DNA of 64,000 nucleotides from an uncultured Acidimicrobiaceae bacterium. Lineage in GTDB: Bacteria > Actinomycetota > Acidimicrobiia > Acidimicrobiales > Bog-793. Below the pieces are notes generated by a model, which was not told the DNA's origin, ran no database searches, and saw only the letters and a list, made by a program, of their open reading frames with translations. The stretch covers positions 155,705 through 219,704 of the forward strand of contig CAWDRQ010000030.1 of assembly GCA_963804765.1 (NCBI GenBank), read 5' to 3'. Positions within the stretch are counted from its first letter, which is position 1. The number at the start of each line of letters is the position of its first letter. Positions 5,154-34,140 of the stretch are shown here, in pieces. Made by a program: the position numbers and the translations under genes.

Positions 5154-5179
5154 TCAGGACCGGACGTGACAGTCTCCCG

Positions 5180-6523
5180 TCATCCGGCCCCCACAGGCCG
5201 GCCGTCGGTGAATGCGACGAGTTGCCAGTGGGCGAAGAGTTTGGGGTTGCGTCGGTAAATCCGTTGCAGCCATTCCATCGCCCGTAGGTATCTCTTGCGG
5301 AATCGCTTGAACTTGTGCACGGCCCATCTGGTGAGATGCTCATTGATGCGCCATGCGAGGAAGCTCAACTCGGAGCGGTAGAAGCGCCCGTAGTAGTTGA
5401 TCCAGCCGCGCACTTGGGGATTGATTTCCTCGGCGATGCCAGACAGGTCCATCCCGGTTCGACGACCGAGATGCCAGGCTCTGATCTGTTGGCCTTTCGC
5501 TTTCCTCGCCGCTGCCGAGATGGCCGGCAAGAAGCCAGCAAAGTAGCCTCTTGGCCCTTTGGCCAGGCGAGTCCGGAAGGTGTAGCCCAAGAAGTCGAAG
5601 CTGGTGTGCTCGTAGCTTCCGGGGCGGTTCGCGTCCTTGCAGAACACGATCTTGGTCTTCTCGGGGTGCAGCTCGAGACCCAGGGTCCCCAGCCGCTCGG
5701 CGATCGCAGCTCTCAGATTTCGGGCCTGTTCTTCGGTGTCGCAATGAGCGACGATGTCGTCTGCGTAGCGCTCCCAGGGACATCCCGGGTGTTCCCGGTC
5801 CATCCACCGGTCGAACGCGTAGTGCATGAACAGGTTGGCCAATACGGGCGAAATCGGAGAACCCTGCGGGGTTCCCTTCTCCCGTGGTGTCAGGGTCCCG
5901 TCCGCCATCTGCATGGGGGCTGTAAGCCACCGTTGGATGTAGAGCAGAACCCACCGCTCGCTGGTGTGGTGAGCCACCGCTTGTAACAGCAGATCATGGG
6001 GGACGGAGTCGAAGAAGGCCCGGATGTCGCAGTCGAGCACCCAGTCCTTCTCCCAGCACCGTCTCCGACAGACAGCCAGCGCGTCATGGGCCGAGCGGCC
6101 CGGACGGTAGCCGTAGCTGTCAGGGTGGAAGATCGGCTCCAGCTTCTCCTCCAGCAGCATCGCTGCCGCCGTCTGCGCCACCCGGTCGGCCACGTTCGGC
6201 ACCCCGAGGACGCGCACGCCCTTCCCGTGATCCTTGGGTATCTCCACCGCCCGCACCGGGCCAGGGAAGTAGCTCCCCGACGACATCCGGTTCCACAGCT
6301 TGTAGAGGTTGTCCCTCTCCCGCTCTTGAAACCCGTTGATGCTGACGGCGTCCACGCCCGGAGCCCCGTAGTTGGACCGGACCTTCTCCCACGCCCGAAA
6401 AACCAGGCGCTTGTCGATCTCAAACGACTTCACTTTCGGCTTGGGTGTCTCCCCAGGCTCCTCCCCCGCAGGGTTGGCCTCGGACTTCCCCTGGTCTGCG
6501 CGGCCCCTTGGCTCCAGCCCCAT
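5180..6523 (-). CDS. Group II intron reverse transcriptase/maturase
   Basis: 447 aa. RT blocks are present, including YRPGRSAHDAL, TPQGSPISPVLANLFMH and the catalytic YADDIV. The maturase X region is GWINYYGRFYRSE. No HNH endonuclease tail is present. Confidence 0.95.
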   Translation of the reverse strand: MGLEPRGRADQGKSEANPAGEEPGETPKPKVKSFEIDKRLVFRAWEKVRSNYGAPGVDAVSINGFQERERDNLYKLWNRMSSGSYFPGPVRAVEIPKDHGKGVRVLGVPNVADRVAQTAAAMLLEEKLEPIFHPDSYGYRPGRSAHDALAVCRRRCWEKDWVLDCDIRAFFDSVPHDLLLQAVAHHTSERWVLLYIQRWLTAPMQMADGTLTPREKGTPQGSPISPVLANLFMHYAFDRWMDREHPGCPWERYADDIVAHCDTEEQARNLRAAIAERLGTLGLELHPEKTKIVFCKDANRPGSYEHTSFDFLGYTFRTRLAKGPRGYFAGFLPAISAAARKAKGQQIRAWHLGRRTGMDLSGIAEEINPQVRGWINYYGRFYRSELSFLAWRINEHLTRWAVHKFKRFRKRYLRAMEWLQRIYRRNPKLFAHWQLVAFTDGRPVGAG

Positions 6524-7170
6524 TACAGGACCTTCATCGCTACTGCGAGCCGCCCCGTCCCAGTGCCCCGCATCGGTACTCTGCCCCTCACGGTTGACGC
6601 CGCTTGGGGTCCTCCCTTTCGCGACCAGGGGGTCAACAACACCCGTTTCGACTGGCCGACAGCATCGGGACGACTGGTTCTCCTGTTCCGTATCAGCGCC
6701 TGCGACGAGCTCACGCCACCTCTACACCGGACACCACCAGGCCAGCACACAGGCCACCGCCTGGCTGAGGGCGCGCCAAGTCGGCGCGCCTTTGTCACGG
6801 GAACTATGCGACTCCCCGCTTTTGGCACCATCGTTTCGGCTTTCGATGCTTCAGACAGTGGTTCACTCACGTTCGTCTTCTCGTCGCCCACCTGACCGGC
6901 TCCCGGCCGGCCTTTTCCGCAACGCTCACCACCCCGGCTCTTAACCGACGCAGCTTGCGGTGGTTTGGGATCCCCGCCTGCACGGCGAACCCGGAGGGCC
7001 ACCCTCCATCACTGATACAGCACGGTTCGTGCTGGTGGCTTCTACCTCACCCTCACTCTCCTTTCAGGACACACGGCGTAACGCCGATTATTTCCGCAGC
7101 GCGCCGATCCACTGGGCCGCTCTCCGGCATTCCCCGCCGCGCATTATGCGTTTGCCCACGTAATGAGGAT

Positions 7171-18127: not shown

Positions 18128-18453
18128 GACGCCACTGTAGGCAGCGGGTGCCGCCGGCACGTCGGGCGACGGAATGAACGCGCCCCATCGCGAAGGGTGT
18201 GCCTGCCGTTCATCAGGCAGTCAAGAGAATTCATCGAAGCCCTCGCCACATCTGAACGACGCACATCAGAACGCGGCCCCGGCTCGGTGGGACCGCCACG
18301 CCAGATCGGATCTCGAGCGCCTCCGCCGTCCGAAGCGGAGAGCCTCTCACGCGTGCGAGGACTCGCGCAGCCTGTCGCGCACTGGCGGCCGGGAGCACTC
18401 CCGCGCTTGCTCAACGGGACGTTGTCCGGGAACAGTCGACGGCACCGGGATCC

Positions 18454-18714
18454 TCAGTGCTCGTAGTGATACCTCGCCTGGAGGACCACGACGTCATCAC
18501 CGTCAATCAGGTACACGAGGCGGTGCTCCTCGTCGATCCGCCGCGACCAGCAGCCCTGCAGAACATGCTTCAACTGTTCGGGCTTGCCGATCCCTGACAG
18601 CGGATCGCGGAGTACCCCTTCAAGCAGGCGATTGATCCGCTTGGTCGTTGTCCGATCCGTCGCCTGCCAGTAGAAGTAGTCCTCCCAGCCGTGTGGCGTG
18701 AAGACGAGACGCAC
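18454..18714 (-). CDS. yoeB: YoeB/Txe-family mRNA interferase toxin
   Basis: 86 aa: MRLVFTPHGWEDYFYWQATDRTTTKRINRLLEGVLRDPLSGIGKPEQLKHVLQGCWSRRIDEEHRLVYLIDGDDVVVLQARYHY. This is a near-textbook YoeB sequence. Confidence 0.92.
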   Translation of the reverse strand: MRLVFTPHGWEDYFYWQATDRTTTKRINRLLEGVLRDPLSGIGKPEQLKHVLQGCWSRRIDEEHRLVYLIDGDDVVVLQARYHYEH

Positions 18715-18956
18715 TATGTGATCTCGTGCTCTTCACGCTGCCCATCGAGCGACTGTCGGAGGCTCTCGAGCAGGCGACGGGCGTTGGCCGGAACACGGAG
18801 CAGGTAGGCCGTCTCCTGAAGCGCGTCGTAGTCCACTCGAGACATGAGGACGGCATCGCCCCGCTTCGAAGTGATCTCGACCGGTTGGCGGTCGTCGTTC
18901 ACCTGCTCGATCAACGGGAAGAGGTGCTTCCTCGCCTCGCTCGCGGTAATCGCCAT
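18714..18956 (-). CDS. yefM: YefM/Phd-family antitoxin
   Basis: 80 aa from ATG 18956: MAITASEARKHLFPLIEQVNDDRQPVEITSKRGDAVLMSRVDYDALQETAYLLRVPANARRLLESL. Its stop shares a base with the yoeB start. Confidence 0.92.
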   Translation of the reverse strand: MAITASEARKHLFPLIEQVNDDRQPVEITSKRGDAVLMSRVDYDALQETAYLLRVPANARRLLESLRQSLDGQREEHEIT

Positions 18957-18973
18957 CGCCCTCTCCTCTCCGA

Positions 18974-18995
18974 CTGGTACATTATATGGTACCAG
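18974..18995 (-). promoter_or_regulatory. Putative yefM-yoeB promoter/operator palindrome
   Basis: Plus strand reads CTGGTAC-ATTATATG-GTACCAG. On the gene strand this places a perfect TATAAT hexamer between 7-bp inverted arms with GTAC cores. It lies 18-40 nt upstream of the yefM start. Confidence 0.55.
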
Positions 18996-19372
18996 TGTGC
19001 GTTGTCTCGCCCGACGCAGCTCAAGTGCCGGTCTCCGCACGTTGATACGGAATAAGGCATTTCTTCAGTAGGGACGCCCCGTTTGGCAAGGATGACCGCT
19101 TAGGTTGCCGCCTGGGTCCAGGCTCGACGCCTCTCCTGACCGATCCGGGAGGCGACGCGTGTCCAAGGCCGATCAACTTGCCAAGCCTGACGCCCTGAGA
19201 ACACAAGGGGTCTTCTCCGAGGCGGAACTTGCCGCTGAGCCAGCAAGACTGCTTGAGCCACCGGCACCGAGCAACCTTCCCGTCCCCGCGCCGTGGGCCC
19301 TGAGCCTCGTGGCCGCCGTCTGGTTCGTCCTCAGCGAAGTCGTCACTCAATGAACCAAGCAAGGGAACAGTC

Positions 19373-20470
19373 ATGAACACGCCATCAACACCACGAGGGG
19401 CGCAACTGCTGACGAAGGTGGGGGTCGCCGGCCTCTGCGCGGCGCTACTCCTCGGTCCCCTGAGCGTGGTCGCCGGGGCGACAGCCTCGCATCAGGTGAA
19501 GCGGATCACCATTGGCGAGTTCGCCCGCGGCAAGACCGCACTGACCGCGGCGTTGGCGAGGCAGGTGAATCAACTGGCGGCGACCATCGTGCGCGATGGC
19601 GTCACCCACGTGTTGCTCGAGGGCTACACCCCGTGGCACCTTGACAATCCGGTCATGGCGGGTCGGGCCAGTGCTCGAGCACATCACGTACTCGCCTACC
19701 TCGGGCGTCGCCTGCAGGCCCTCGGCGACGCGAAGGTGCATCTCACTGACGGGGGTGCCGTGAGCGGATTGTTCACCAACCACTCGAACGACCGCGTCGT
19801 CGTGGCCAGCTTCGCGGTGCCAGGGGTCAACTACCGGGTCACCTTCGACGCCAACGGCGGAACGGGCACGATGCCGGCCGAGTCCTCAAACGGGGCGGCC
19901 GTGCGCTCGACCGACACCTTCCTATGCACCGGCTACACGTTCGCGGGCTGGAACACCGCCGCCAAAGGCTCGGGCATGAGCTACGCCGACGCGGCGACCT
20001 ACCCCTTCAGCGCCAGCGCGACCCTCTACGCGCAGTGGACGGCGCTCGCGGTACCGACCCAGGTGCTGATCGGCACGACGACGACCTTCGCCAGCACCAC
20101 GTTCAGCGACGCGTTGGCCAGGAGCGCCTTCGCGAGCGCTCTCACCTACGCAACGACCGGATCCAACGCCGACCTGCTCGTGTCGTCGAACGGGGTCGTC
20201 ACCACGGCCAACGGGCCACTCGACGTCGGCACCTACGAGGTCAGCGGCACGGTGCGCGACGCGCTGGGGGGCACCGGGACCTGGAGTTACACGTTGGTCG
20301 TGGGCACGAGCGGGCTGCTGACACAGACCGGCGGAGTCATCACCCAGACCGGCGACGTCAGCGGGGTCACCACCGACGAGGCCTCCTCCTCGTTCACCGA
20401 CCAGCTTTCGGTGAGCGGGGCGGTCGGGGGTTCGTCTGATGGGTGCGCCGCGCTGGTCACCCGCTACTGA
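19373..20470 (+). CDS. Secreted protein with OmpA-like region and an InlB-B-type repeat
   Basis: 365 aa with an N-terminal signal/TM segment. The stretch GEFARGKTALT..L...V..LA..I....V..VLLEGYT...RASARAHHVLAYL resembles an OmpA_C fold. The stretch YRVTFDANGGTGTMPAESS...GYTFAGWNTAAKGSGMSYADAATYPFSASATLYAQW is the Listeria-Bacteroides (InlB B) repeat. Confidence 0.65.
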   Translation: MNTPSTPRGAQLLTKVGVAGLCAALLLGPLSVVAGATASHQVKRITIGEFARGKTALTAALARQVNQLAATIVRDGVTHVLLEGYTPWHLDNPVMAGRASARAHHVLAYLGRRLQALGDAKVHLTDGGAVSGLFTNHSNDRVVVASFAVPGVNYRVTFDANGGTGTMPAESSNGAAVRSTDTFLCTGYTFAGWNTAAKGSGMSYADAATYPFSASATLYAQWTALAVPTQVLIGTTTTFASTTFSDALARSAFASALTYATTGSNADLLVSSNGVVTTANGPLDVGTYEVSGTVRDALGGTGTWSYTLVVGTSGLLTQTGGVITQTGDVSGVTTDEASSSFTDQLSVSGAVGGSSDGCAALVTRY

Positions 20471-20486
20471 TCGCGATGAGTAACCC

Positions 20487-20852
20487 TCACGGTCCTTCGG
20501 GCCTTCGAACACGAACCAGATGGCCACGCACGACGACGATGCATCCTGTGAGGTCGCCGAGTTGCTCGTTGCTCAGAAAGCTCCGTACCGTGCTGGTTAC
20601 TGTTTCGACGTCCTGGTGCTCAGCACGGATGACGGCGATGCCAGGGTGGCTACCAGGCGGGTATCGACGGACATTGCCAAAGCCTCGATCGAGTGTGATG
20701 ACAAAGCGCTGCTCCCTCATCGCTGCGGCGAGGACATCGGGGTCGCCGGCGCCCGTAAGACCTTCGTCGATCACGGTGTCGACATCGTGGCCCCGGGAGG
20801 CGGCGGCAAGCCGCGCTGCCTCTGGGAGATTCTCGTCTAGCTTCAGCCTCAC
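20487..20852 (-). CDS. DUF5615-family PIN-like putative toxin
   Basis: 121 aa. It begins MRLKLDENLPEAARLAAASRGHDVDTVIDEGLTGAGDPDVLAAAMREQRFVITLDRGFG. The (L.DENlp......l...GhdV.....eGl.G..D..vl..a..e.r.liT.D.dF) pattern is typical. Confidence 0.8.
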   Translation of the reverse strand: MRLKLDENLPEAARLAAASRGHDVDTVIDEGLTGAGDPDVLAAAMREQRFVITLDRGFGNVRRYPPGSHPGIAVIRAEHQDVETVTSTVRSFLSNEQLGDLTGCIVVVRGHLVRVRRPEGP

Positions 20853-21109
20853 CCCGGCGACGGCTCGAGTGGGTGCAGCTCCTCACGGGCGAGAAAGGCC
20901 GCGTAGGAAAGGGCGGCGGCGACAGCACCTGGCGGAAGTGACGGGTACTCGACGCGGATCTGCTCCTCGGTCATTCCCGTGGCAAGGCAGTCAAGGATGA
21001 CGCTCACCGGGATGCGGGTGCCGCGAATCCGGGCCTGACCGTGCACGACCGCCGGGTCGGCGTCGATGAGGTCGAGGGGCTCGATTGCCATTGCTCCATG
21101 GTCCCACAT
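20849..21109 (-). CDS. DUF433-family antitoxin-like protein
   Basis: 86 aa; the start may be the second Met at 21091. It contains DPAVVHGQARIRGTRIPVSVILDCLATGMTEEQIRVEYPSLPPGAVAAALSYAA, the DUF433 signature. It overlaps the DUF5615 gene by 4 nt. Confidence 0.8.
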   Translation of the reverse strand: MWDHGAMAIEPLDLIDADPAVVHGQARIRGTRIPVSVILDCLATGMTEEQIRVEYPSLPPGAVAAALSYAAFLAREELHPLEPSPG

Positions 21110-21158
21110 CGGTCTGCCAATCGGTCATCCGATCCGCGGGCGAAAGCCTCGTCAAGTG

Positions 21159-21200
21159 GGTGGTGATGGCGAGCCGGCCTGTAGGCGGGGTTCTGTCCGC
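21159..21200 (-). repeat. Orphan copy of the 3'-terminal 42 nt of rnpB (att-type direct repeat, distal copy)
   Basis: ggtggtgatggcgagccggcctgtaggcggggttctgtccgc is identical over 42/42 bases to 33756-33797, in the same orientation. The flanking bases differ on both sides. Confidence 0.9.
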
Positions 21201-21242
21201 TGTGCTATTTGACCAGGACTCTTGTCTGCCGACAGGTGATTT

Positions 21243-21263
21243 GGGCCGCAAATGGGCCGCAAC
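21243..21263. promoter_or_regulatory. Phased GGGCCGCA direct-repeat pair (candidate arm-type integrase site)
   Basis: GGGCCGCAaatGGGCCGCAac, 43 bp inside the distal att copy. The partner pair GGGCCGCGgatGGGCCGCGtg is at 33653-33673. Confidence 0.5.
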
Positions 21264-21284
21264 ACCAGACGCGGGTCTGTGAAA

Positions 21285-21900
21285 TCAGCCTTCGATGGGC
21301 GCTCGCGCTGCTATATCGGAAGCACGCAAGCCTCGATCTACTGCTGCCCGAGTCCGGTCGTCAGTATCTGGCCACAGGTGGCCGTAGGTGTCGAGCGTCT
21401 CACTGGCTGTCGCGTGCCCGAGGCGGGCCTGAACGATCTTCACACTCTCGCCGCCGTCGATCAGTAGCGACGCGTAGTAGTGACGGAGAGCGTGAAAGCC
21501 AGTTCCATTAGGCGCGCCTGCCGCTTTCACTGCCGGACGCCAGACCTCGGAGAATCGCGTGCGGCGCAACGGCCCGCCCTGTGGATTGGTGAACAAGAGC
21601 CCGTCCGAGCCAAGCGGATAAGCCGCCATGTGAGCTGCGAGCTCACTGAGCACGACGTCGGGGAGCGGGATCGTGCGGACGCTCGCCGTCGTCTTCGGGG
21701 GGCACAGAATGATCCCGACGATCGCGCCAGATCGACGTTCTTGTGCACTTCACTGCTTCCGTTGCGATTCATGCGAGTTCCCCAGCCATTTCGTGAAGCA
21801 GCAGCATCAGGCAGTCTTGGCGAGCACCAGACCCCAATAACGCTGCCGCGCCGTGGCCGCGTCCACGATGCCCGCAGACCGCCCACCCTTGCGCGTTGAG
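21285..21900 (-). pseudogene. Tyrosine recombinase (phage-integrase family) remnant: catalytic half only, with frameshift(s)
   Basis: The C-terminal frame reads ...GIILCPPKTTASVRTIPLPDVVLSELAAHMAAYPLGSDGLLFTNPQGGPLRRTRFSEVWRPAVKAAGAPNGTGFHALRHYYASLLIDGGESVKIVQARLGHATASETLDTYGHLW (H.LRH...LGH...Y). The preceding EVHKNVDLARS lies in another frame. The N-terminal ~180 aa expected for such enzymes are not present. Confidence 0.7.
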
Positions 21901-22138
21901 GCACGCAATCGCCTCTTAAGTAGAAGGGCCTAACAGCAACAATCTCATCGCCAAAAACGCAATACGGGCCATTCGGAGAGCCTCTGCTTCACACCGCCTT
22001 CGCGGGTTCCGGGTCCGCTAAATCGGCCCGCCATTGTCGTCGCCTAGTGCCATCAGACTCGCTTCTAACTAACGATAAGACTGGTTTATCGTTGGTCACA
22101 AACGAGGAAAAGGGGAGGGCGCCGTGACGCTGCTCCAA
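21857..22138 (+). repeat. Integrase-leader module, copy a (about 282 bp)
   Basis: Roughly 75-80% identical by eye to 26641-26920. Weaker similarity extends back to 21764/26587. The module ends with a ribosome-binding site and the first five codons GTG ACG CTG CTC CAA of a plus-strand integrase. Confidence 0.8.
22071..22093 (+). promoter_or_regulatory. Conserved palindrome in the integrase leader
   Basis: Copy a is AACGATAA-gactggt-TTATCGTT. Copy b (26856-26876) is ACGATAAA-gctag-TTTATCGT. The arms are conserved while the centre differs. It lies about 30 nt upstream of the GTG start. Confidence 0.5.
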
Positions 22139-22294
22139 AGCACCAAGCAAGCCGTCGAACTGGCCGAGATCGCCTCCGATGCTCGGGACTACGTGGCCGC
22201 GAGCCGGGCCGAGAACACGACCTGTGTCTACCGCGCCGGCTGGGCGCAGTTCACCGCCTGGTGTGACGAGCACGGGGTGACGGCTCGGCCCTGA
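22124..22294 (+). pseudogene. Tyrosine recombinase, N-terminal 56-codon fragment
   Basis: VTLLQSTKQAVELAEIASDARDYVAASRAENTTCVYRAGWAQFTAWCDEHGVTARP*. The A..NT...Y...W..F..WC motif marks the SAM-like N-terminal domain of this integrase type. No catalytic domain follows. Confidence 0.6.
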
Positions 22295-22496
22295 GGAGCT
22301 GGCGCCGCTCTTCCAAGATTGGCAATGGCGGCCGAACGCTTGTCCGCGAACGTCGCCCCACGCTGACGTGAGCCTCCCCCGGTTTTCCGGAGGGGTTGGG
22401 AGGCGATATGGCAACGACGATGGGCAGACGGAAGGCGCGCCGCGGCGCCATCCCCAACGCCGCTCGAGTGCCGTCACCGGCGTCGACGGGGACGTG

Positions 22497-23261
22497 CTAG
22501 GTGCGGCTCGGCGTCGTGCCGGCGCGGCGGATGTCCTCCACCAGGGCGGCCAGGCGGTCATAATGCGAACCCTGCCAGTAGATCCGACTGCAGTCCGGGC
22601 ACGTCGAGAAGTCATTGTAGTCCCGCCGTGTCCGGGGCGGCAGGCGGTGTTCAACGTCCTGCTTCGCCACACGTTCGAGCACGCCGTTGCACTCGAGGCA
22701 TCGGCCGAACGGGGCGATGGCCCCGAACAGGTCGAACCGGCGCAGGATCTCGACGACCTGGCGACGGTAATTGGTCTCCCGCACTAGATGGCCGTGTGTG
22801 ACTTTGGCGTGCTTCAACAGGCCTCGATCCCTGGTGAGGAGGATCCGCTTCTCGTCCACCGAGATCGTCGCCAGTTCGTGGTCGGTGATGTCGTTTCGCC
22901 ACACTGAATCAAAGCCGAGGAGTCGTAGGATTCGGGCGAGCCGGCCGAGATGGACGTCGAGTACGAACCGCGGCTCGCGCAGCGGTCTCGGACGCAGCAG
23001 CACGAGCGACGACACGTCGAGCGCCTCGAACACCGGATACACGCTCACGCGGTCACCCTCACCCACCTGGTGGACGAAGTCCACGGACTCGCCGTTCACC
23101 AGGATCACCTCGATCTCGGTGTGTGGCACCCCGAACGACTCCGCCAGGTCCTTGACAGTGGTGCCGGCGGCCACCTCGAGCGTGATCGGCCGGCCACGCC
23201 GGTCCGGTGGCAGGAAGTCGTTCAACTCGGCATAGAAGCGGACTTCGACGCGGTGGCGCAT
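22497..23261 (-). CDS. Mut7-C RNase-domain protein with N-terminal ubiquitin-like (beta-grasp) domain
   Basis: 254 aa. The N-terminus MRHRVEVRFYAELNDFLPPDRRGRPITLEVAAGTTVKDLAESFGVPHTEIEVILVNGESVDF is the Mut7-C ubiquitin-type domain. It is followed by RFVLDVHLGRLARILRLLGFDS...ILLTRDRGLL (PIN-like Mut7-C). The C-terminal zinc ribbon is RCLECNG...CPDCSRIYWQGSHY. Confidence 0.85.
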   Translation of the reverse strand: MRHRVEVRFYAELNDFLPPDRRGRPITLEVAAGTTVKDLAESFGVPHTEIEVILVNGESVDFVHQVGEGDRVSVYPVFEALDVSSLVLLRPRPLREPRFVLDVHLGRLARILRLLGFDSVWRNDITDHELATISVDEKRILLTRDRGLLKHAKVTHGHLVRETNYRRQVVEILRRFDLFGAIAPFGRCLECNGVLERVAKQDVEHRLPPRTRRDYNDFSTCPDCSRIYWQGSHYDRLAALVEDIRRAGTTPSRT

Positions 23262-23452
23262 TTGCGTCGAGCGTAGGGGCCGTGGATGCCGGATTCCTGT
23301 GGGGTCCGCTCCAGCTCCCCGGCCAAACGCACGAGACTCTCGTCCAGACTGGCCGGCGATCTGCGCCGCGGCCTGCGCGAGTCACGGTCCGCTCGGCCTC
23401 GGCACCCCTGGTCGTCGAGTTGCAGGCCGACCTCGAACGGTGGCGTCTCTGC

Positions 23453-23530
23453 GGCGCGCCAGCCATAGTGGAACTGTTCACGGGCTACTGGCTCTGCCGC
23501 CCGTGCTGCGATCGCCTCGGGCGTGAGGCC
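23453..23530. repeat. Short diverged repeat (copy a) shared with the integrase downstream flank at 27340-27418
   Basis: Both copies start at GGCGCGCC and share about 65-75 nt at roughly 75% identity. On the minus strand several differences fall at third codon positions (EA(I/V)AA..AEPV(A/V)REQ(F/L)). Confidence 0.55.
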
Positions 23531-24151
23531 ATGAAGCTCAGCGGGGAATGGTCCGGCCTGCACTCCGCGGCGAGGCTGCCCACGCCTTTTCGCGCGCGGC
23601 GACCCCGCCCAGATCGCCATTCGTGCGGGCGTCTTTTGGATTAGCAAGCTCCACGGAGGAGCCAAAGAACCTCGGTTATGTCTTCGCCCGCGACCTCTCC
23701 GTTCCCGTGCCCGCTGTCATCGTCCAGCTGGCCTGCCCCAGTGATGGCCCTCCACGTCGCACACCTGACTAGGACGACGTCATCGACGACTGAGGGATAA
23801 CCATCACCGTGCCTCTGCAATGAGCATGGGCGGCAGTGCCGCACCCAGGTCGGTCCCGGCGCTGTGTCGCTCGCCACCCTACGGCATGCACGTGCGGTGC
23901 CCACCTCTTGCGCGTCAAGGTGCTGGCGACGCATGCTTGCGCGGTGGGCCCAAGGCCTAGCTGGAGGTAGCCGACGTGTTACCCAACGGTCATCCCTGTG
24001 ACGGGCCGTGGCCGGAACTGCCAGCTCGTCGCCGTCCCCCTGTCGTGGCGCTGCTGGTGGCCGCGCCGTCCCCCATTTGTGACACGGGTGCCAGTGCTTT
24101 AGGCCCTCATGACACCACGACCGTCATCGGCATCATCCCAGGAGGCGTGAG

Positions 24152-26254
24152 TTGATTCGTACTTGGCAGGTACGCAAGGTTGGAGCAGGTCGTCTGTGGC
24201 TGTGCCTCGTTTGTGTTGTCTCGACGGTTGCTCTCTCGATTGCCCCGGTGATGCTCGCTGGTGCTGCGAGGCCACCTTCGAACGCGCCGCTCGGGTTCTG
24301 GAACAGTTACGCGTACATCACTGACTGGGGCCCGACGTTCCCGTCCGACAAGCCTCCGGGAGGGCCTTTCCCCAACCCGACAACAATTACCTCCTACGAC
24401 CCGACGACAGGCGCTTTCTCAGGCACCGACAATGCCTGGGGCATAGGGCTGGAGAAGATAACCGGGACGCTCTACCCCGACGGCGCCGTGACGTACACGA
24501 TCGTTCACGCCGATGTGGTGCTGAATGGCAAAGGGACCATTACGTTCAACGCTGATGGAACCACCGCGATCTGGAAAGGTACCTGGAGCAATTCGATCGG
24601 CGAAATCGGCACGGACTACGGCGAATGGAAAGGATTCGTGCTGACGGGAACGGTGGAGGCGGACCCGTGCGGGCCTGACGCTACGTCGTGCTCTGTTCCG
24701 CCGACTCCGGTGTCCGGTGTGACAATGACCGCCACCGGGGCTTACCACGTTTCGGCGACAACTGACAGCAAGGGCGACTACTCGATGGTCCTCCAGGTGG
24801 GGACTTACACCATTAGGCCGACCATGGATGATTTCACCTTTGACCCCCCGTCGCGTTCAATCCACCTCGAGACCGACACGACGGATGTGGACTTCACGCT
24901 CTTGAGTTCTCCGTACAGCATCGACTGGCAGATGCCCAGCCGCGTGAAAGAAGGCACGGATGTCTCTTCTGACGGCGGCCTGCCACCTGCCAGCTATGTG
25001 TACCCGGACATGTGGTCGGCGAAGCTGTACCTGACCGAAGGTGGCACGCGGGTGACGTCCTGCCCGTCGGGGTCTGTCTGGAAGTGGCATGTGACCCCGC
25101 TCCACACGGTGGGCAACCGGGAGCCCACCATCACCGAACCGGAGGACGGGTGCGCAACTTCGTTCGAGACAACCCAGCTCGGGACTTACAGGGTGGTCGC
25201 TCAGGAATACAAGCGGACCCCCAAAGGCCTCGTCAAGGACGGGCCCGCAGTCGCCACGCCCGACGTGGTGCTCAACGACTTGTTGATCGTCGGCCTGGGC
25301 GACTCCAACGGGTCGGGCGAAGGGTACCCACCGTTCTACTTCAACCAGTGCCACCGGGGCACAGCGTCCTACCAGTACCAGGCAGCGCAGATGCTGGAGA
25401 AGCTGTTGGAAGGCCACACCAGCATCACGTTCGTTTCCGCCTCCTGCTCGGGTGCCAAGATCCAGAACCTGATCTCCCTCTCCTACGACGGCTTCCCACC
25501 GGGGAACTCGCTGGAGCCGCAGGTCGGTGCCGTGCGCGCGCTCATTGCCGACAGCGGTGGACAACCGCCCCGCAAGGTGGACGCCGCTTTCGTCTCGGTC
25601 GGGGTCAACAACATCGCGTTCGGGCCGGTGATGAGGTACTGCATGGCTGTTCATCTTTCGTACACGACGTGCTCAAACCAAAATGTCACGCCGGTCTACA
25701 ACGCGAACGGCCTTATCAGCGGCTTCGAGCATACGATGTCGTTTAGAGCTTTGACTTTGTCGGACTGGGTCGCCAAGCTGACAGCCGACCTGCCCAGGCT
25801 CTACGGCACGCTCGGGCCAGTGCTGGCGGACCTGGTTGCCCCCGAGGACACGTTCATCACGCAGTACCCGACTTTCGCCTACGCCGATACCAAAGGCAAT
25901 ATCTGCAGCATGCTCGGCCACGACAGCATCTTTACCGAAGCAACCTGGAAGTGGCTGATGGACGTCAACTTGGCGCTCAACGCCCAGGTCGCCGCCACTA
26001 GAAGTCTCGGCTGGCGGGTCGTGCCCGTCGCGCCCGCTTACTTCCTGGGCCACGGCTACTGCGCCACCGACTCCTGGTTCGTCAGTATTACCCGTTCCAT
26101 ATTCAACTTGAACATCGACGGCGCCTTCCATCCCACCGCGGACGGTGCTGCCGTGACGGCCAAGCTCGTCGCAGACGACTCGTGCCTGTGGCTGGTAGGA
26201 AAGCCCGAATGCGGCTATCACATCTTGCCTGTTGCTGGACCAGCTACGGGCTAG
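24152..26254 (+). CDS. Large secreted protein: carboxypeptidase-regulatory-like beta-sandwich plus C-terminal SGNH/GDSL-type hydrolase
   Basis: 700 aa with a TTG start after AGGAGG. The N-terminal TM/signal is LWLCLVCVVSTVALSIAPVMLAGA. The stretch GVTMTATGAYHVSATTDSKGDYSMVLQVGTYTIRP is a CarboxypepD_reg-like motif. SGNH blocks are IVGLGDSNGSGEG (block I), ...SVGVNNIAFG (block III) and FHPTADGAA (block V-like). Confidence 0.7.
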   Translation: MIRTWQVRKVGAGRLWLCLVCVVSTVALSIAPVMLAGAARPPSNAPLGFWNSYAYITDWGPTFPSDKPPGGPFPNPTTITSYDPTTGAFSGTDNAWGIGLEKITGTLYPDGAVTYTIVHADVVLNGKGTITFNADGTTAIWKGTWSNSIGEIGTDYGEWKGFVLTGTVEADPCGPDATSCSVPPTPVSGVTMTATGAYHVSATTDSKGDYSMVLQVGTYTIRPTMDDFTFDPPSRSIHLETDTTDVDFTLLSSPYSIDWQMPSRVKEGTDVSSDGGLPPASYVYPDMWSAKLYLTEGGTRVTSCPSGSVWKWHVTPLHTVGNREPTITEPEDGCATSFETTQLGTYRVVAQEYKRTPKGLVKDGPAVATPDVVLNDLLIVGLGDSNGSGEGYPPFYFNQCHRGTASYQYQAAQMLEKLLEGHTSITFVSASCSGAKIQNLISLSYDGFPPGNSLEPQVGAVRALIADSGGQPPRKVDAAFVSVGVNNIAFGPVMRYCMAVHLSYTTCSNQNVTPVYNANGLISGFEHTMSFRALTLSDWVAKLTADLPRLYGTLGPVLADLVAPEDTFITQYPTFAYADTKGNICSMLGHDSIFTEATWKWLMDVNLALNAQVAATRSLGWRVVPVAPAYFLGHGYCATDSWFVSITRSIFNLNIDGAFHPTADGAAVTAKLVADDSCLWLVGKPECGYHILPVAGPATG

Positions 26255-26640
26255 CTACAGTCACAGTCGCCCTCTTCCTCTTGCTTGGTTGTGCCAGCTC
26301 CGGCGGCCGTAAGTGGTCCGGTGGATAAGGGGACGCGTCGCTCCACCATGAGCCACGGCGGGCCGTGCAGAACTCCAGGTCCTGGACGCTCCCAGAACCC
26401 TCGCGGCGAGTGCGTCGTTGAGATTGGCGTAGCCCCGGAGCTGAAAGCAAGCCCAGGTGTCGTCAGGGACGCACGGGTCATCTCGCTATCCGCACCGATC
26501 GCCCCTTATTGAGTGGACGTTTTCTCGGTGCCCTGGGTGGATAGAGAGCGCGGAACGACGGGTCTAGCGTACGTCGCTGCTCTTGTCGCGACCCATGCGA
26601 GTGCCCGGGCCATCTCGACAAGAAAGCTACGGTGCGGTTA

Positions 26641-26920
26641 CCGCGTCCACGATGCCCGCAGACCGCCCACTGTTGCGTATGGGGGGGCGCAATCGCATCT
26701 CGAGTAGGAAGCTACCAGCGAGCAATCTCATCGCCTAAGCGCCGTCCGGGGCCAACGGAGAGCCGGTACTTGCATGCTGCATTCGCGAATCCCAGGCCCA
26801 CTGACTCGGCCTGCCATTGTCACCTGTCAGTGTCCTTGTGACTCGCTTCTAACTCACGATAAAGCTAGTTTATCGTTGGTCACAAATGAGGAAAAGAGAG
26901 GGACTGTGACGCTGCTCCAA
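26641..26920 (+). repeat. Integrase-leader module, copy b
   Basis: Partner of 21857-22138. It includes the palindrome at 26856-26876 and the GTG ACG CTG CTC CAA start at 26906. Confidence 0.8.
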
Positions 26921-27323
26921 GACCGATCAGGAAGGCGCCGGGCGCGCTGTCGGCATCCCCTACGGGTCGAACCCGGTTACCTGCCCGGTGCGTGCCTGGC
27001 GCGCGTGGCTCGAGGTCTCAGGCATCACCGAGGGACCGGCCTTTCGCCCGGTGGACCGCCATGACCGCATCAGCACGACACGACTAAGCGCCCAGGCGGT
27101 GGCCCTCGTGCTGAAGCGCCACGCTGGCCGTGCGGGGCTCGACCCCGGCGAGGTGGCCGGTCACTCGCTCCGCGCCGGCCTTGCGACTTCGGCTGCTGCT
27201 GCCGGCGTACCCGAGCGCGTCATCGCCGAGCAGACGGGCCACAGGGGCACGGCCATGCTTCGCCGCTACATCCGCGAGGGCTCGCTGTTTCGTGAGAACG
27301 CCGCCGGGGCGGTTGGGCTGTAG
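26906..27323 (+). pseudogene. Tyrosine recombinase with large internal deletion (first 5 codons fused out of frame to the C-terminal 133 codons)
   Basis: VTLLQ is followed, one base out of frame, by SKTDQEGAGRAVGIPYGSNPVTCPVRAWRAWLEVSGITEGPAFRPVDRHDRISTTRLSAQAVALVLKRHAGRAGLDPGEVAGHSLRAGLATSAAAAGVPERVIAEQTGHRGTAMLRRYIREGSLFRENAAGAVGL*. This carries the SKTDQ..G, HSLR and GH...Y motifs. The junction lies in the shared string CTCCAAG. Confidence 0.75.
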
Positions 27324-27552
27324 GGGAGGCTGGCGGGCAGGCGCGCCGGGCACGGTCGAGTTGTTCGCGAACTACCGGCTCTGCCGGCCCTGCTGCAACC
27401 GCCTCGGACGCGTAGGCGAGCCGTTGCCAGCGGTAGGAGACTTCCCGCTGGTAGCGCATATCGGCCAGCGGGCTGCCGTGCCTGGGCCGATTGCATTGTC
27501 CTCGTCGGGTACAACATGTGTCGGACCAACGATCCGTACCTGGAGGACCTTC

Positions 27553-28389
27553 ATGGCGACGAGCCCCACCGTCACGCTCAACAACGGCGTCGAGATTCCT
27601 CAACTCGGCTTCGGTGTCTTCAAAGTCAAGCCAATTGAGACCGTGTCCGCCGTGACCACCGCACTTCGGGTGGGGTACCGCCACATTGACACCGCGGAGA
27701 TGTACGGCAACGAGAAGGAGGTCGGCCTGGCCATCACCGCCTCAGGACTCGACCGGGACGACGTGTTCGTCACGAGCAAGCTAAACAACAACCACCACCC
27801 TTACAGCGATGCTCTCGCCGCCTTTGACCAGACACTGAGCGACCTTGGCCTCGAATATGTCGATCTTTTCCTCATCCACTGGCCTCTGCCGGCCGTTGGC
27901 GACTTCGTCGAGACGTGGCGCGCACTCGAGAGCGTGTACAGGGACGACCGCGCTCGGGCCATCGGCGTCTCTAACTTTCACGCCGACCACCTCCGCCGCC
28001 TGCTTGACGAGACGGAGCTCGTCCCGGCAGTCAACCAGATCGAGGCACACCCCTACCTGACCCAGGAGCCGCTTCGCGCTTTCAACGCCAGCCACGGCAT
28101 CAAAACCGAGGCCTGGTCGCCGATCGCCCGGGGCAGGGTACTGGACGATCCGACCATCAAGGCTGTCGTCCATCGGACCGGTCGGACAGCGGCGCAGGTC
28201 GTATTGCGATGGCACATTCAACTGGGCAACATCGTGTTCCCGAAGTCTGTCCGGCCGGATCGAATCGAGGAGAACTTCAACATCTTCGATTTCGAGCTCT
28301 CCGGCGAGGACATGGCGGCAATCTCGAAGCTAGACCGGGGCGAACGCACCGGCCCGGACCCCGACACGTTCAACTACGTGCCGGACTGA
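27553..28389 (+). CDS. Aldo/keto reductase (2,5-diketo-D-gluconate-reductase-like)
   Basis: 278 aa from ATG 27553: MATSPTVTLNNGVEIPQLGFGVFKV...GYRHIDTAEMYGNEKEVG...LFLIHWP...AIGVSNF...NQIEAHPYL...AWSPIARG. All standard AKR blocks are present. Confidence 0.9.
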   Translation: MATSPTVTLNNGVEIPQLGFGVFKVKPIETVSAVTTALRVGYRHIDTAEMYGNEKEVGLAITASGLDRDDVFVTSKLNNNHHPYSDALAAFDQTLSDLGLEYVDLFLIHWPLPAVGDFVETWRALESVYRDDRARAIGVSNFHADHLRRLLDETELVPAVNQIEAHPYLTQEPLRAFNASHGIKTEAWSPIARGRVLDDPTIKAVVHRTGRTAAQVVLRWHIQLGNIVFPKSVRPDRIEENFNIFDFELSGEDMAAISKLDRGERTGPDPDTFNYVPD

Positions 28390-28585
28390 GTTCATCGGTG
28401 GGCATGGTCGCGCCCAGTTCAGGTCGTGGAGGTATCTGCCGAGCTTGACTGCAAGATGGTCGCGAAGCACCGGTGTGACTCCTCCGGGCATGGGCTGCTC
28501 GACCTGGCTGCCTATGACGACTACCTGCAATGGCGGCTCGACCTGGGCTGAACAGGGCTCTCCGCCGCTTCGACCGTCGGTCGGC

Positions 28586-29017
28586 CTAGCGAGCCCAGTC
28601 CGGATCGAGCTGACTGAGGAACAGCGCACAGCGCTGCGCCTCGTCGATCTCTCCTATCGCTTCGGCAGCTCGGCGCAGGGCCTCGACTGAGCGCAGGAAG
28701 CCACGGTTCGTCTCGTGCCGCCAGCGCACGTAGCCCGAGCCTCGCCAGCCCGCGGCGCGTAGCGCGTCGAGCCCGCGGTGATAGCCGACTCGGGCGTAGG
28801 CGTAGGACTCCACTTCGTCCTCGACCAGCTCGGCCAGTGAGGCCCAAGCCTCGAGGAAACGCGGGTACGCGCGGGCAACGGCTTCGACCGCGGTTTCACG
28901 CTCCGCACCCGACATGGCGAACGCGTCCGCGAGGGCCTCCGTCCACTCCTCGGGCGGAGCGGGAAGCACCGTCTCAGGGAGGCCTCGGCTGAGATTGACT
29001 GCTGCGTCGTCGGTCAT
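28586..29017 (-). CDS. DUF3151-family protein
   Basis: About 143 aa from ATG 29017 (MTDDAAVNLSRGLPETVLPAPPEE...). The stretch AYPRFLEAWASLAE....ESYAYARVGYHRGLDALRAAGWRGSGYVRW....NRGFLR matches my memory of DUF3151. Confidence 0.7.
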   Translation of the reverse strand: MTDDAAVNLSRGLPETVLPAPPEEWTEALADAFAMSGAERETAVEAVARAYPRFLEAWASLAELVEDEVESYAYARVGYHRGLDALRAAGWRGSGYVRWRHETNRGFLRSVEALRRAAEAIGEIDEAQRCALFLSQLDPDWAR

Positions 29018-29163
29018 GGCTTCATCCTTGCTCAGGCCGCCGCGGGCTGGGCCACGGCGCTCAGGCCATCCTGTACGTGCTGATCGATCCAGGTCACCTT
29101 GGTCGGTCACTTACCCGACATGTATCGCCGAGTGGGAACTCTCCCGATGGTCTGGTCTCGGGA

Positions 29164-29856: not shown

Positions 29857-30672
29857 TCACTCAGCGGTGATCTCCGCCACCGCCATTCGAGCCGATGATT
29901 CGTCGACGATCGCCTTCTTCTCACCGTAGGCGGCGACGAGGGACTGGACCGCCAGGTTGTTCACCACGCGGGGCAGGCCGCGGCTGACCTGGTGTATGAG
30001 CGAGTTGGCGTCGTCGGAGAACAGCCGGTCGCTCCGTCCCGCGAGCGCCAGGTGATCCGCGATGTAGTCGCCGGTCTCCGAAGCGCTCATGCCCTGCAGG
30101 TGGTAGCGCAGAGCGATCCGCTGCTCCAAGGCGGCGAATGCTCCGAGGCGGATGCGCCGGCGCAGCGTCGGCTGGCCGCAGAGCACGAGGGAGAACGGGC
30201 TCACCGAGTCGAGCTCGGCGTTCATGAGCAGGCGCAGCCCCTCGAGCTGCTCGGGGGAGAGAAGGTGAGCCTCGTCGACCGCGAGGATCACCTTCTTCCC
30301 CCGCTCGGCGGACTCCTGCGCGAGGAGGTCGGCCGTCTGAGGGACGAGCGCCGCGGCATGGAACCGGGGGACCCCTCCGAGCGCGCTGACGATCGCTGCG
30401 TGCATTCCGCGCACGCCGATCGTCGGGTTGGCGAGGTAGACGACGGTATGGCGCGACGAGTCGAGTCCGGCGACCGCGGCCCGAAGAGCCACGGTCTTGC
30501 CGGAGCCGACTTCGCCGGTGAGCACCCCCGCCGCGGACTCCACGACGAGGAACCCGACCCGGGCGACGGCCTCCAGGTGGCCGGCGTGACGATGCAGCGC
30601 CCCGGGGGCGACGTCCTTTCCGAAGGGCATCTTCGAAAAGCCGTAATGGGCACGAAGCAGCTCGATCGTCAT
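29857..30672 (-). CDS. ExeA/TniB-like AAA+ ATPase (transposition helper)
   Basis: 271 aa. It begins LLRAHYGFSKMPFGKDVAP.... Walker A is GEVGSGKTVAL and Walker B is ILAVDEAHLL. The stretch PFSLVLCGQPTLRRRI is typical of ExeA-type ATPases that accompany Mu-like DDE transposases. It has a 4-nt overlap with the upstream gene. Confidence 0.85.
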   Translation of the reverse strand: MTIELLRAHYGFSKMPFGKDVAPGALHRHAGHLEAVARVGFLVVESAAGVLTGEVGSGKTVALRAAVAGLDSSRHTVVYLANPTIGVRGMHAAIVSALGGVPRFHAAALVPQTADLLAQESAERGKKVILAVDEAHLLSPEQLEGLRLLMNAELDSVSPFSLVLCGQPTLRRRIRLGAFAALEQRIALRYHLQGMSASETGDYIADHLALAGRSDRLFSDDANSLIHQVSRGLPRVVNNLAVQSLVAAYGEKKAIVDESSARMAVAEITAE

Positions 30673-32069
30673 GACCGTCCCTCTCGTGTCTCGATGGGCC
30701 GGTCGGTGACGAGGTCCCAGCTCGCCGGGCGGGTGACGACGATGCCGTCCAGGTCCTGCTCGCTCGGGCCGGCGCCATCGGGCAGGTCGGTGTAGGCGAT
30801 CCTCTTGGCCATCTCCTCGCTGTGGCGGGCCTCGATGAGAGCGAGGTAGTCGATCCCGGTGGGCACAGGTGGTGGCTCGGGGTCCTTCGCGACCCGGGGA
30901 TGGCTGTGACGACGGGTGACGTGCGGCACCGCCTCACCCATCGGTCGGCCCTCGAAGCGGACCTCGACGGCTTCCAGATGGAACGGGTCGAAGACGAGCT
31001 CGACTCGCCGACCGATGAGCGCGGGATCGACCTCATATGAGTTGCCGAACAGGTTGACGGTGCCGGTCTTTGTGACCATGCGCCGCTCGGCCCACAAGAA
31101 GGCCTCGTGAAGCTGTTCGGCAGACGGCGGAGAACTGGGTGCTCCGCCGGCGAGGAAGCGCTCGATCGGCGCCTCGCCGGTCTCGGTGTGCCGGCGGCGG
31201 TGATAGACGGACTCGACGAAGGCGGAGAACAACGAGTTCATCTCGTCGAGGCCGCAGACCTTGCCGGGATCGAGCTCGACCAAGAACTGCTCCCGCACGG
31301 TCTTGAAGACGCGCTCGATCTTCCCACGGCCTTCCGGTCGACCCGGCTTGCTGTGATGGAGCTTCATCCCGAGCACCGCGCACGCCCGCAGCAGCTGGAT
31401 AGAGACCATTGCGCTCCCGTTATCGAGGTAGATGGCCTCGGGGATCCCACGTCGCTCGATGCCCGAGCGGAGTGCGGCCTCGAGGCGGAGCGTGTCCTCG
31501 GCGTGTCCCCAGCGATAGCCGACAAGAGCTCGGGAGTAGTCGTCGATGAAGGCGAACAGATAGGTCTTCCTCCCCCCGATGACCGGCCCGTGCAGGGCGT
31601 CGCCGGTCCACAGCTCGTTCGGGCGGTCCGCCTCGAAGCGCCCGAAGGCGAGTTTCGGCCGGCTCTCGGACCGGGCGAGGCCGACACGGACGAAGTGGCG
31701 CTGCAAGGTGCGCTCGTGCGGTGCCCAGCCCCCGACGGTCCGCAGCAGCTCGCAGATGTGCGCCGCGGTGCGCTCTGGGCGCTCGCGCCGCAGTCGGCAG
31801 GCGAGGTCCAGCAGCTCCTCGGGCGTGCGGGGGTTGGCATGGCGCGCCTCGGGCTTCAGTGCCGCGAAGCCGCCGGAGCGGAGCATCCTCGTCCAGCGGT
31901 CGATCGTGGCGCGTGACACGTACACCTCGGTCCCTCCCGGCCCGAGGTGGGCCGTGCCGGCCAGCTCTCGCGCGAGCCGGCCACGTTCAGCTCCCGACAG
32001 CGACTCGTCGACGAGGCAGCGCACGAGCGAGTAGCGGAACAACGCGACTTCGGTCGCGTGGTCTTCCAT
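30669..32069 (-). CDS. DDE (rve-type) transposase with Mu-transposase-like C-terminal domain
   Basis: 466 aa from ATG 32069, preceded by GGAGGAGG. An N-terminal HTH is present. The DDE triad context is WTGDALHG / FIDDYSRALVGYRW, IYLDNGSAMVS and GRPEGRGKIERVF. The C-terminal beta-barrel-like region is VTKTGTVNLFGNSYEV. Confidence 0.9.
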   Translation of the reverse strand: MEDHATEVALFRYSLVRCLVDESLSGAERGRLARELAGTAHLGPGGTEVYVSRATIDRWTRMLRSGGFAALKPEARHANPRTPEELLDLACRLRRERPERTAAHICELLRTVGGWAPHERTLQRHFVRVGLARSESRPKLAFGRFEADRPNELWTGDALHGPVIGGRKTYLFAFIDDYSRALVGYRWGHAEDTLRLEAALRSGIERRGIPEAIYLDNGSAMVSIQLLRACAVLGMKLHHSKPGRPEGRGKIERVFKTVREQFLVELDPGKVCGLDEMNSLFSAFVESVYHRRRHTETGEAPIERFLAGGAPSSPPSAEQLHEAFLWAERRMVTKTGTVNLFGNSYEVDPALIGRRVELVFDPFHLEAVEVRFEGRPMGEAVPHVTRRHSHPRVAKDPEPPPVPTGIDYLALIEARHSEEMAKRIAYTDLPDGAGPSEQDLDGIVVTRPASWDLVTDRPIETREGRS

Positions 32070-32127
32070 GGTCCTCCTCCTTCTTGTCTTCGGCCCTTTC
32101 CAGGTCGCCAAGAAGGCTCGCGGGCGC

Positions 32128-33755: not shown

Positions 33756-34140
33756 GGTGGTGATGGCGAGCCGGCCTGTAGGCGGGGTTCTGTCCGCCGG
33801 CCGGCAAGCCGGTACCGACGGGGTGGCCATCCATCTACGCGGCCTACCTGGGGACATCGGGCGGGCCACCCGTCCCACGTTTGGCCTTGCTCCGGGTGGG
33901 GTTTACCGAGCCGACCGGGTCGCCCCGGCCGCTGGTGCGCTCTTGCCGCACCTTTTCACCCTTGCCTGTACACGGCGTGCCGTGCCATCGGCGGTCTGTT
34001 CTCTGTGGCACTGTCCTGCGGGTCGCCCCGACTAGCTGTTAGCCAGCACCCTGCCCTGTGGAGCCCCGACCTTCCTCAGCCGGCTGCGGCGCCGAAACGC
34101 CACACCGGCCGCGGCCACCCGGTCGACTCGCCATCACCGG
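33756..34140 (-). ncRNA. rnpB: RNase P RNA, bacterial type A
   Basis: The minus-strand sequence contains the universally conserved blocks GAGGAAGGUCGGGGCUCCACAGGGCAGGGUGCUGGCUAACAG, GGUGAAAAGGUGCGGCAAGAGCGCACC, GGUAAACCCCACCCGGAGCAAGGCCAAA and ACAGAACCCCGCCUA. A 12-bp P1 stem forms between GGUGAUGGCGAG (5') and CUCGCCAUCACC (3'). The ends are accurate to a few nt. Confidence 0.92.

Follow-up and report, generated by a model that had tools for sequence, protein, structure and literature searches.

Tyrosine recombinases of about 320 amino acids with two domains and no arm-binding domain, such as Cre of phage P1 and XerS, act on a symmetric site (loxP and difSL, respectively) that lies close upstream of their own gene. 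Fragments of an enzyme of the same build occur twice in the 64,000-nucleotide stretch of an uncultured Acidimicrobiaceae genome analysed here (contig CAWDRQ010000030.1, positions 155,705 to 219,704; hereafter the window), each behind a diverged copy of one long leader. We regard it as likely that these copies are two defective members of a small site-specific integrative unit of peat-bog Acidimicrobiia, one of which (unit B, at 26553-27414) has suffered a deletion while the other (unit A, at 21728-23622) has had its gene swapped. The leader of this unit carries a 13-7-13 palindrome immediately ahead of the ribosome-binding site of the integrase gene, which adds to the likeness with the Cre-loxP and XerS-difSL systems. 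However, the similarity between the enzymes is remote (E 2e-9), the gene is present in multiple, often truncated copies in many contexts, and no rearrangement junction was observed at the leader palindrome.

Transposable elements offer a second comparison, as their non-autonomous copies are internally deleted or cargo-swapped and keep both ends. Unit A likewise keeps its ends and its leader while the enzyme gene has been lost, and unit B and the homologue P0115 are internal-deletion derivatives. The enzyme here is a tyrosine recombinase and not a DDE or HUH transposase, though, and neither terminal inverted repeats nor fixed-length target-site duplications were seen. Integrons resemble the unit in pairing a tyrosine recombinase with a conserved upstream region, where some relatives of the unit have a single gene inserted, but the unit lacks an IntI-specific signature, attC sites and a cassette array.

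The accretion and deletion of site-specific integrative elements, including the cis-mobilizable elements (CIMEs) of the ICESt1 family, are established, and derivatives that retain their ends without a recombinase were already known (Pavlovic et al. 2004, as cited in a survey of genomic islands). Elements with the same recombinase accumulate side by side both in that family and in ours, and in both some that lack a recombination module keep their ends. In contrast to ICESt1, the autonomous unit described here is only about 1.6 kb long, with the integrase as its sole gene and no conjugation or mobilisation genes; its defective derivative arose by gene replacement, and the copies lie 2.9 kb apart instead of head to tail. 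Fragmented integrases also pile up in islands in the case of the tycheposons of Prochlorococcus (bioRxiv 10.1101/2020.12.28.424599). There, as here, tyrosine-recombinase elements repeatedly enter the same islands by a structural RNA gene and leave fragmented integrases and partial target copies. Tycheposons differ in being larger, in carrying replication or packaging genes together with cargo and in targeting tRNA genes, whereas the present unit has a different, small Cre-like recombinase and a long conserved leader, and the repeat of the RNase P RNA gene (rnpB) at our locus belongs to the surrounding island and not to the unit. What is distinct here is the combination of a one-gene autonomous unit under 2 kb, a long conserved leader, and a derivative in which a host gene has replaced the recombinase. 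No description of such an integrase-only unit was found in a limited literature search.

The integrase family and the intact unit

A protein search with the two integrase fragments joined recovered 3770 proteins. The best 120 of these 3770 are 74-91% identical to the query, and nearly all of them measure 305-328 aa, with the 206-aa deletion derivative P0115 as the one exception. Using the full-length homologue P0007 as reference, the fragment of copy A aligns to residues 1-58 with 81% identity, while the fragment of copy B aligns to residues ~182/183-318 of the same proteins with 90% identity. By sequence, then, both fragments come from one family of 318-aa Cre/Xer-like tyrosine recombinases. 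An origin of the two pieces in unrelated integrase families would have overturned an earlier interpretation made from the letters of the window alone (the sequence-only reading), which had attributed both to a single integrase; since full-length homologues cover the N-terminal and the C-terminal fragment alike, that attribution holds. P0115, which is called as a gene on a 17-kb ENA contig, joins residues ~1-42 in frame to residues ~165-318 and is a further internal-deletion derivative.

The closest solved structures are Cre (E 2e-9, residues 29-304) and XerD (residues 23-302). With 318 aa, two domains and no N-terminal arm-binding domain, the enzyme falls into the simple, Cre/Xer-like class, and its identity as a tyrosine recombinase is indicated by PF00589 (Phage_integrase), which matches the C-terminal fragment of copy B (E 1.6e-9) and all homologues. 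Alignment of the full-length homologues displayed K185, H266, R269, H292 and Y301 as nearly invariant columns, and the first catalytic arginine sits within a conserved ALRRSEL motif. Residues 6-10 vary freely between homologues, unlike the start of the open reading frame (ORF). A classification as XerC, XerD or XerS proper was rejected, because the NCBIfam Xer models match only far under their cut-offs. Relatives at 82-88% identity come from metagenome-assembled genomes (MAGs) of Acidimicrobiales and Acidimicrobiaceae of bogs and peat, with the family being abundant in peat Acidimicrobiaceae MAGs, and relatives at 44-58% identity are spread over many phyla.

Comparison of loci with this gene (loci and contigs are numbered here with the prefix L) revealed an intact unit of ~1.57 kb, for example at 5976-7546 of L111. 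It consists of a left extension of ~110 nt, a leader core of ~290 nt, the 957-nt integrase gene and a tail of ~205 nt. The left extension opens with CAGATCGACGGTTC and the tail finishes in ...GGCGACCCCACGCAGATCGCCGATT; as junction strings, the termini read ...GGCGACCCCACGCAGATCG at the tail end and ACGGTTCCAGTGCACGTCGC... at the left end, and a CCACGCAGATCG-like repeat is present at both. The 10 complete tails run into 10 unrelated downstream sequences, and the left ends, 30 in number, sort into 15 flank groups. Together with the repeat at either end, these flanks give the unit the fixed ends in varied contexts that characterise a site-specific integrative element. A census of breakpoints placed the clusters at the left end and the tail end, where the leader core starts, at a mid-tail palindrome, and immediately behind the stop codon, where the alternative tails T2 and T3 take over. 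Units are often truncated, several are often present per locus, and multiple copies or fragments within 10 kb are the rule (the window, L012, L011, L022/L134, L111, L122/L155, L126/L145 and L104/L117/L121/L154). It is the diversity of contexts that suggests mobility of the unit. The recombinase would insert and excise it at the short core CCACGCAGATCG repeated at both ends, and units would pile up in the same neighbourhoods and subsequently decay.

In peat metagenomes the unit is also located within a phage-like element, with a sigma-70 factor gene on one side and an HTH_17 gene on the other (L001-L010, L013-L021). A terminase, an N6/N4 methyltransferase and another integrase (479-499 aa) are encoded by this element too, and it is a possible vehicle for transfer from cell to cell.

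The repeated leader proved to be real. Alignment of 21835-22138 with 26619-26920 gave 76.2% identity over 307 nt (E 1.7e-53 to 3e-53), so that the similarity of the two modules, which the sequence-only reading had proposed, is significant, and fainter homology reaches upstream to 21728 in copy A and 26553 in copy B, with an indel of ~40 nt. Sequence search of the 64-kb window found no third copy. Both leaders close with the identical ribosome-binding site (RBS) and the codons GTG ACG CTG CTC CAA, as had been noticed before, and these bases are nearly invariant in 41 distinct leaders with a mean identity of 76%. Conservation in the leader is concentrated in two blocks. The 5' block includes CCGCGTCCACGATGCCCGCAGACC and TTGCGCGTGGAGGCACGCAA, while the 3' block is formed by the 13-7-13 palindrome TAACTCACGATAA-AGCTAGT-TTATCGTTGGTCA, the RBS and the first 14 nt of the ORF; the palindrome (22071-22093 and 26855-26877 in the window) and these 14 nt (22124-22137 and 26906-26919) are almost invariant among the 41. 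Intact integrase genes of unrelated contigs are also preceded by this leader, with 72-84% identity.

When metagenomes were scanned for the leader palindrome, 66 further loci emerged, which were then mapped. No change of context occurs at the palindrome at any locus, including all 66 retrieved through it. A role as crossover site is therefore unlikely, and the palindrome is probably an operator or a translational hairpin. Candidates of a different kind, a structured RNA or a guide RNA, were rejected: Rfam returned no match in 21600-27600 at the gathering threshold, nor any up to E = 1, and RNAalifold on the 41 leaders gave -12.7 kcal/mol with the palindrome hairpin as the sole consistently paired part and no convincing fold. 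The leader probably acts as a DNA-level control. Scans of copies A and B for promoters and terminators yielded nothing above chance.

A single NlpC/P60 gene (SH3 and C40 peptidase domains) lies inside the leader of an intact unit at L022 4379-6000 (corresponding to L134 6346-7970) and at L011 1-1250. Leader positions 161-187 are duplicated (27 nt) on either side of the inserted gene, and the leaders of L119 and L114 begin at the same position. Such a lone gene with a duplication at its flanks is what an integron-like platform might produce, in which the leader would hold an attI-like site that captures single-gene cassettes (Mut7-C in unit A, NlpC/P60 here). We consider this very improbable, as the integrase reaches 45.7 bits with the integron/XerA model, whose cut-off is 220, and no attC-like repeats turned up in the repeat search of the window. 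Moreover, Mut7-C replaces the body of the gene rather than inserting at a site, the breakpoints in leaders are scattered, and only one such type of insertion was seen.

Units A and B in the window

Unit A begins with a left extension (21728-21834, forward strand) that starts with CAGATCGACGTTC; homology with L134, L123, L127, L148, L111 and L144 begins at this point, and the sequence leftward of it differs. The leader core (21835-22123, forward strand) contains the conserved 5' block and the 3' block with the palindrome (core 22071-22093) and the RBS. It leads into the N-terminal integrase remnant (22124-22297, forward strand), which was correctly described before as 56 integrase codons followed by a stop (22124-22294, the stop being 22292-22294). 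Homology to intact genes is lost near codon 58 and resumes a few bases past the stop codon, at ~23431. Mapping of these junctions against L111 and L011 demonstrated that a 1.13-kb segment at 22298-23430 replaces integrase codons 59-318. The segment holds, antisense to the leader, a Mut7-C RNase gene with an N-terminal ubiquitin-like domain (22497-23261, reverse strand), identified by full-length Pfam matches above the cut-offs to PF01927 (E 5e-48, 163 bits) and PF14451 (Ub-Mut7C; E 2e-30, 105 bits). Unit A closes with a tail of type T1 (23431-23622, forward strand) that has the palindrome GCCTCG-GGCG-TGAGGC near 23514-23529 and the right end ...CCCAGATCGCCATTC; homology with L134 stops at 23622.

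The allele of unit A is not confined to the window. It was found in five other contigs (L134/L022, L123, L127 and L148), which match it at 87-92% and share its junctions and its TGA stop, although the L148 version of the remnant has since been frameshifted. In all of them the allele starts at window position 21728-21730. Its left flanks form three groups, and the two known right flanks differ from each other. An intact integrase lies in L111 behind the left flank of L127 and L148 (88% over ~500 nt of flank), so the intact and the Mut7-C-bearing states are allelic. At the 56-codon remnant, non-synonymous changes equal or exceed synonymous ones, which indicates decay.

Chromosomal Mut7-C loci provide the probable source of the segment. 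Those at L176-L181 are 96% identical to the window over 22428-23319 only, those at L169-L175 match it at 82-84%, and no leader, integrase or tail was found near the Mut7-C genes of L169-L181. On this comparison the segment is of chromosomal origin, an ordinary host gene in relatives. The chromosomal gene at L169-L175 is regularly followed by a Prim-Pol/DnaG zinc-ribbon gene, suggesting another insertion hot spot beside it.

These results identify unit A as a cargo-swapped, non-autonomous derivative older than this genome. It keeps both ends and lacks the recombinase; the neighbouring unit B, 2.9 kb off, is defective as well. Codons 59-318 would have been exchanged, almost exactly to the stop codon, for the antisense chromosomal Mut7-C gene with both ends retained. 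Given its age and its occurrence in several contexts, the derivative would either move by means of an integrase supplied in trans or have ends that keep receiving neighbouring insertions. The sequence-only reading had named a cassette-like replacement as one of two options. The replacement of the integrase body by Mut7-C bears this out, but it did not take place in this genome, since the same allele is found in L134/L022, L123, L127 and L148 with other flanks.

Retention of the leader in unit A could also have a functional cause. Leader A may have been kept, or domesticated, as a control in which antisense transcription from the integrase promoter restrains a potentially toxic Mut7-C protein in the manner of an antisense antitoxin, a proposal compatible with the reading of unit A as a gene-swapped derivative. 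Leader, RBS and palindrome are intact and convergent with Mut7-C, and the arrangement is retained in five other contigs while the integrase remnant decays; the Mut7-C protein is 96% identical in L022/L134 and only 74% in L148. Weighed against the failure of the scans to predict a promoter or terminator in either copy, and against chromosomal Mut7-C homologues that do without such a partner, we judge this control improbable.

Unit B comprises a short form of the left extension with the leader core (26553-26905, forward strand; palindrome core 26855-26877), the first five integrase codons (26906-26920, forward strand) and the C-terminal remnant of the integrase (26916-27323, forward strand; residues ~183-318, SKTDQEG...AVGL*). 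Translation confirmed the earlier observation that this copy jumps one base out of frame after codon 5 into the SKTDQEG... part. The start codon does not share the frame of the remnant, in which neither the first catalytic arginine nor any of the core-binding domain is left. In the related MAG contig L011, an intact integrase adjoins the same aldo/keto reductase (AKR) and DUF3151 genes as unit B does in the window. Measured against L011, unit B lacks 539 bp (codons 6-183), and the direct repeats that flank the missing stretch in L011 lie exactly 539 bp apart, which accounts for the frameshift. The deletion junction falls in GCTCCAA (26914-26920); this much microhomology is certain, and it may extend to 11 nt (CGCTGCTCCAA) depending on the ancestral codons. 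The microhomology-mediated deletion postulated from the window alone is thereby substantiated through L011, and slippage or recombination between the GCTCCAA repeats removed the 539 bp. The proximal part of a T1 tail follows (27324-27414, forward strand), which includes the repeat 27340-27410 and ends at the tail palindrome.

With copy A stopping early and copy B missing residues 6-182, the 64-kb window contains no uninterrupted integrase ORF with both core-binding and catalytic domain. Since neither copy is able to make the integrase, the locus would stay frozen in place unless the genome holds an intact copy at another site. The presence of N- and C-terminal fragments of the same gene on either side of inserted DNA recalls the SSV1-type partition, in which the two would be halves of one integrase gene split by attP. 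The alignment refutes this, and we give it practically no credence: residues 59-182 are missing from both fragments, which therefore do not abut. In addition, a leader and five initial codons of its own precede the C-terminal fragment, the fragments come in the order N...C and not C...N, and integrated copies with an intact gene are numerous. L012 had raised the possibility that codons 58 and 183 are recurrent breakpoints; this was likewise dismissed, as L012a is a contiguous pseudogene of residues 1-220 while the window lacks the middle of the gene.

Evidence for and against an integrative unit

A second short repeat in the window, which had been taken as a mark of the downstream flank of both copies, was confirmed (23453-23523 and 27340-27410, 77% over 71 nt, E 5e-10 to 8e-10). 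It is more than a flank mark, being the proximal part of the ~205-nt tail that belongs to the unit; copy A has this tail in full, while in copy B it breaks off at the palindrome. The view that the two leaders bracket a 4.5-kb cargo segment has to be abandoned, with Mut7-C lying inside unit A (21728-23622) and the SGNH gene between two separate units. The spacer between the units (23623-26552) holds this gene, which encodes a 700-aa secreted SGNH/GDSL-like protein (24152-26254, forward strand; Pfam and homologues). Of the genes previously placed between the copies, Mut7-C with its ubiquitin-like domain was verified, whereas the protein alone gives the SGNH assignment weak support (Lipase_GDSL_2 at 21.6 bits against a cut-off of 32.9), its homologues carrying PF13472. 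In L182 the region corresponding to 23856-26476 is 95.7% identical, and the upstream flank of the SGNH gene is different.

Several observations weigh against the interpretation of the locus as two copies of a mobile unit. Among ~180 loci there was no empty site, no excised circle or attP junction and no head-to-tail pair, and no tail end runs into a left extension. The copies diverge by 10-25% and hence show no sign of recent bursts. Tails are not uniform, as many genes have other conserved sequences (T2, T3) right after the stop codon, and truncations of the tail cluster within ~20 nt of its palindrome GCCTCG-GGCG-CGAGGC (window 23514-23529 and 27401-27414) next to five unrelated right flanks (window/L011, L026/L118/L158, the L023 group, L163 and L054). 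This clustering may point to a second or alternative crossover site, or to a hot spot of recombination or deletion. The different flanks of unit A might reflect later insertions beside it and not its own movement. Finally, the window and L011 disagree in their degree of divergence: from 27383 the flank is 96-100% identical, while the integrase and tail are only 80-88% identical (integrase ~84%) in spite of the same tail truncation. A simple history of one event is insufficient to explain a shared truncation and a near-identical flank around a diverged integrase; the alleles may have entered the same site independently, or may have been homogenised against other copies. That the tail might be the 3'-terminal part of a coding sequence (ELF.GYWLCRPCC.RLGR...) was rejected, because indels of 2 nt and of other lengths not divisible by three separate the copies, along with many non-synonymous changes.

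Some of these observations would fit a strict tandem accretion, in which crossover takes place at the mid-tail palindrome GCCTCG-GGCG-CGAGGC. A 3.9-kb element, made up of a distal tail, the SGNH cargo, leader B, integrase B and a proximal tail, would then have entered the tail of a unit A already in place, with 23453-23523 as its attL and 27340-27410 as its attR, and the variable DNA past complete tails would be cargo. Besides the truncations at the palindrome with their five unrelated right flanks, such a history would explain why the window, L134, L111, L137 and L160 each show a distal tail 2-3 kb upstream of a unit, and why the window and L011 bear different integrase alleles on the same flank; a simple Cre-like recombinase is also expected to use a short symmetric site. 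We nevertheless hold it to be unlikely. Homology between the window and L134, at 95%, crosses the palindrome and is lost only at the tail end, position 23622. In L111, L137 and L160 the 'distal-only' fragments have ~100 nt of further upstream sequence in common and look like 5'-truncated units; with junctions ~10 nt rightward of the palindrome, they show no overlap with the attR-type junctions. Tandem accretion followed by deletion had been the other option of the sequence-only reading, and it stands in part: copy B is indeed a related element that decayed in place, but the two copies are 2.9 kb apart, and no head-to-tail junction occurs at any locus. The likely interpretation remains that of two separate integrative units, A and B, each defective in its own way.

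The surrounding island and the meaning of the unit

The right flank of unit B (27383-29047), which is the part 96-100% identical to L011 (2270-3936), contains the AKR gene (27553-28389, forward strand) and the DUF3151 gene (28586-29110, reverse strand), and synteny stops at 29047. A 75-nt remnant of a gene for a pyridoxal phosphate (PLP)-dependent enzyme lies at 28476-28551 of the window; in L026 (7264-7829) the tail abuts a longer remnant of such a PLP-enzyme gene and the AKR gene is absent.

Both units are inside a 12.6-kb island inserted in the 3' end of rnpB. The island is delimited by a perfect 42-nt direct repeat (21158-21199 and 33756-33797), one copy of which overlaps the 3' end of the RNase P RNA gene (33763-34130, reverse strand). 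Besides the two units and the genes already named (SGNH, AKR, DUF3151), the island holds a methyltransferase and an IS21-type element. Its far end, at the distal 42-nt repeat, carries a second integrase in truncated form (21285-21653, reverse strand); the other half of this integrase was sought rightward of the units and was not found. An assembly artefact was rejected as the cause of these arrangements, which L168 and L134 show independently, L168 being an independent contig that reproduces window positions 18411-27368 at 99.5%.

Inspection of the window also revealed an apparent IS21-family pair at 29857-32111 (reverse strand), with ORFs of 480 aa and 271 aa that by eye resemble IstA and IstB. 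A group II intron (Rfam RF00029 and RF01999) occupies 5117-7007 on the reverse strand, with a 447-aa ORF at 5180-6523 on the same strand. Toxin-antitoxin-like pairs lie by the island boundary at 18714-19040 and 20487-21109 (reverse strand); one of them is PhdYeFM with YoeB (called in L168) and the other DUF433 with a DUF5615 PIN-like protein.

Taken by itself, the finding in the window is ordinary decay of mobile DNA, with two dead copies inside an island. A more far-reaching view, which we put forward tentatively, is that the ~1.57-kb unit may be an autonomous element of the size of an insertion sequence whose only gene is the Cre-like recombinase, and which may yield a trans-mobilised Mut7-C derivative and so serve as a vehicle for single host genes. 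If truly mobile, the unit would represent a very small class of bacterial integrative element, made of one recombinase gene and ~600 nt of non-coding DNA. Units of ~1.57 kb would escape surveys with a threshold of 2 kb; in one survey of genomic islands, att-delimited intervals were counted only above 2 kb, and integrative mobilizable elements with fewer than five genes made up only 0.5% of that class. The Mut7-C allele shows a single chromosomal gene captured by such a unit with the ends kept. For the peat Acidimicrobiia, the result explains the recurring integrase fragments and conserved 'orphan' non-coding blocks in their MAGs, and the frequent breaks of contigs at these places.

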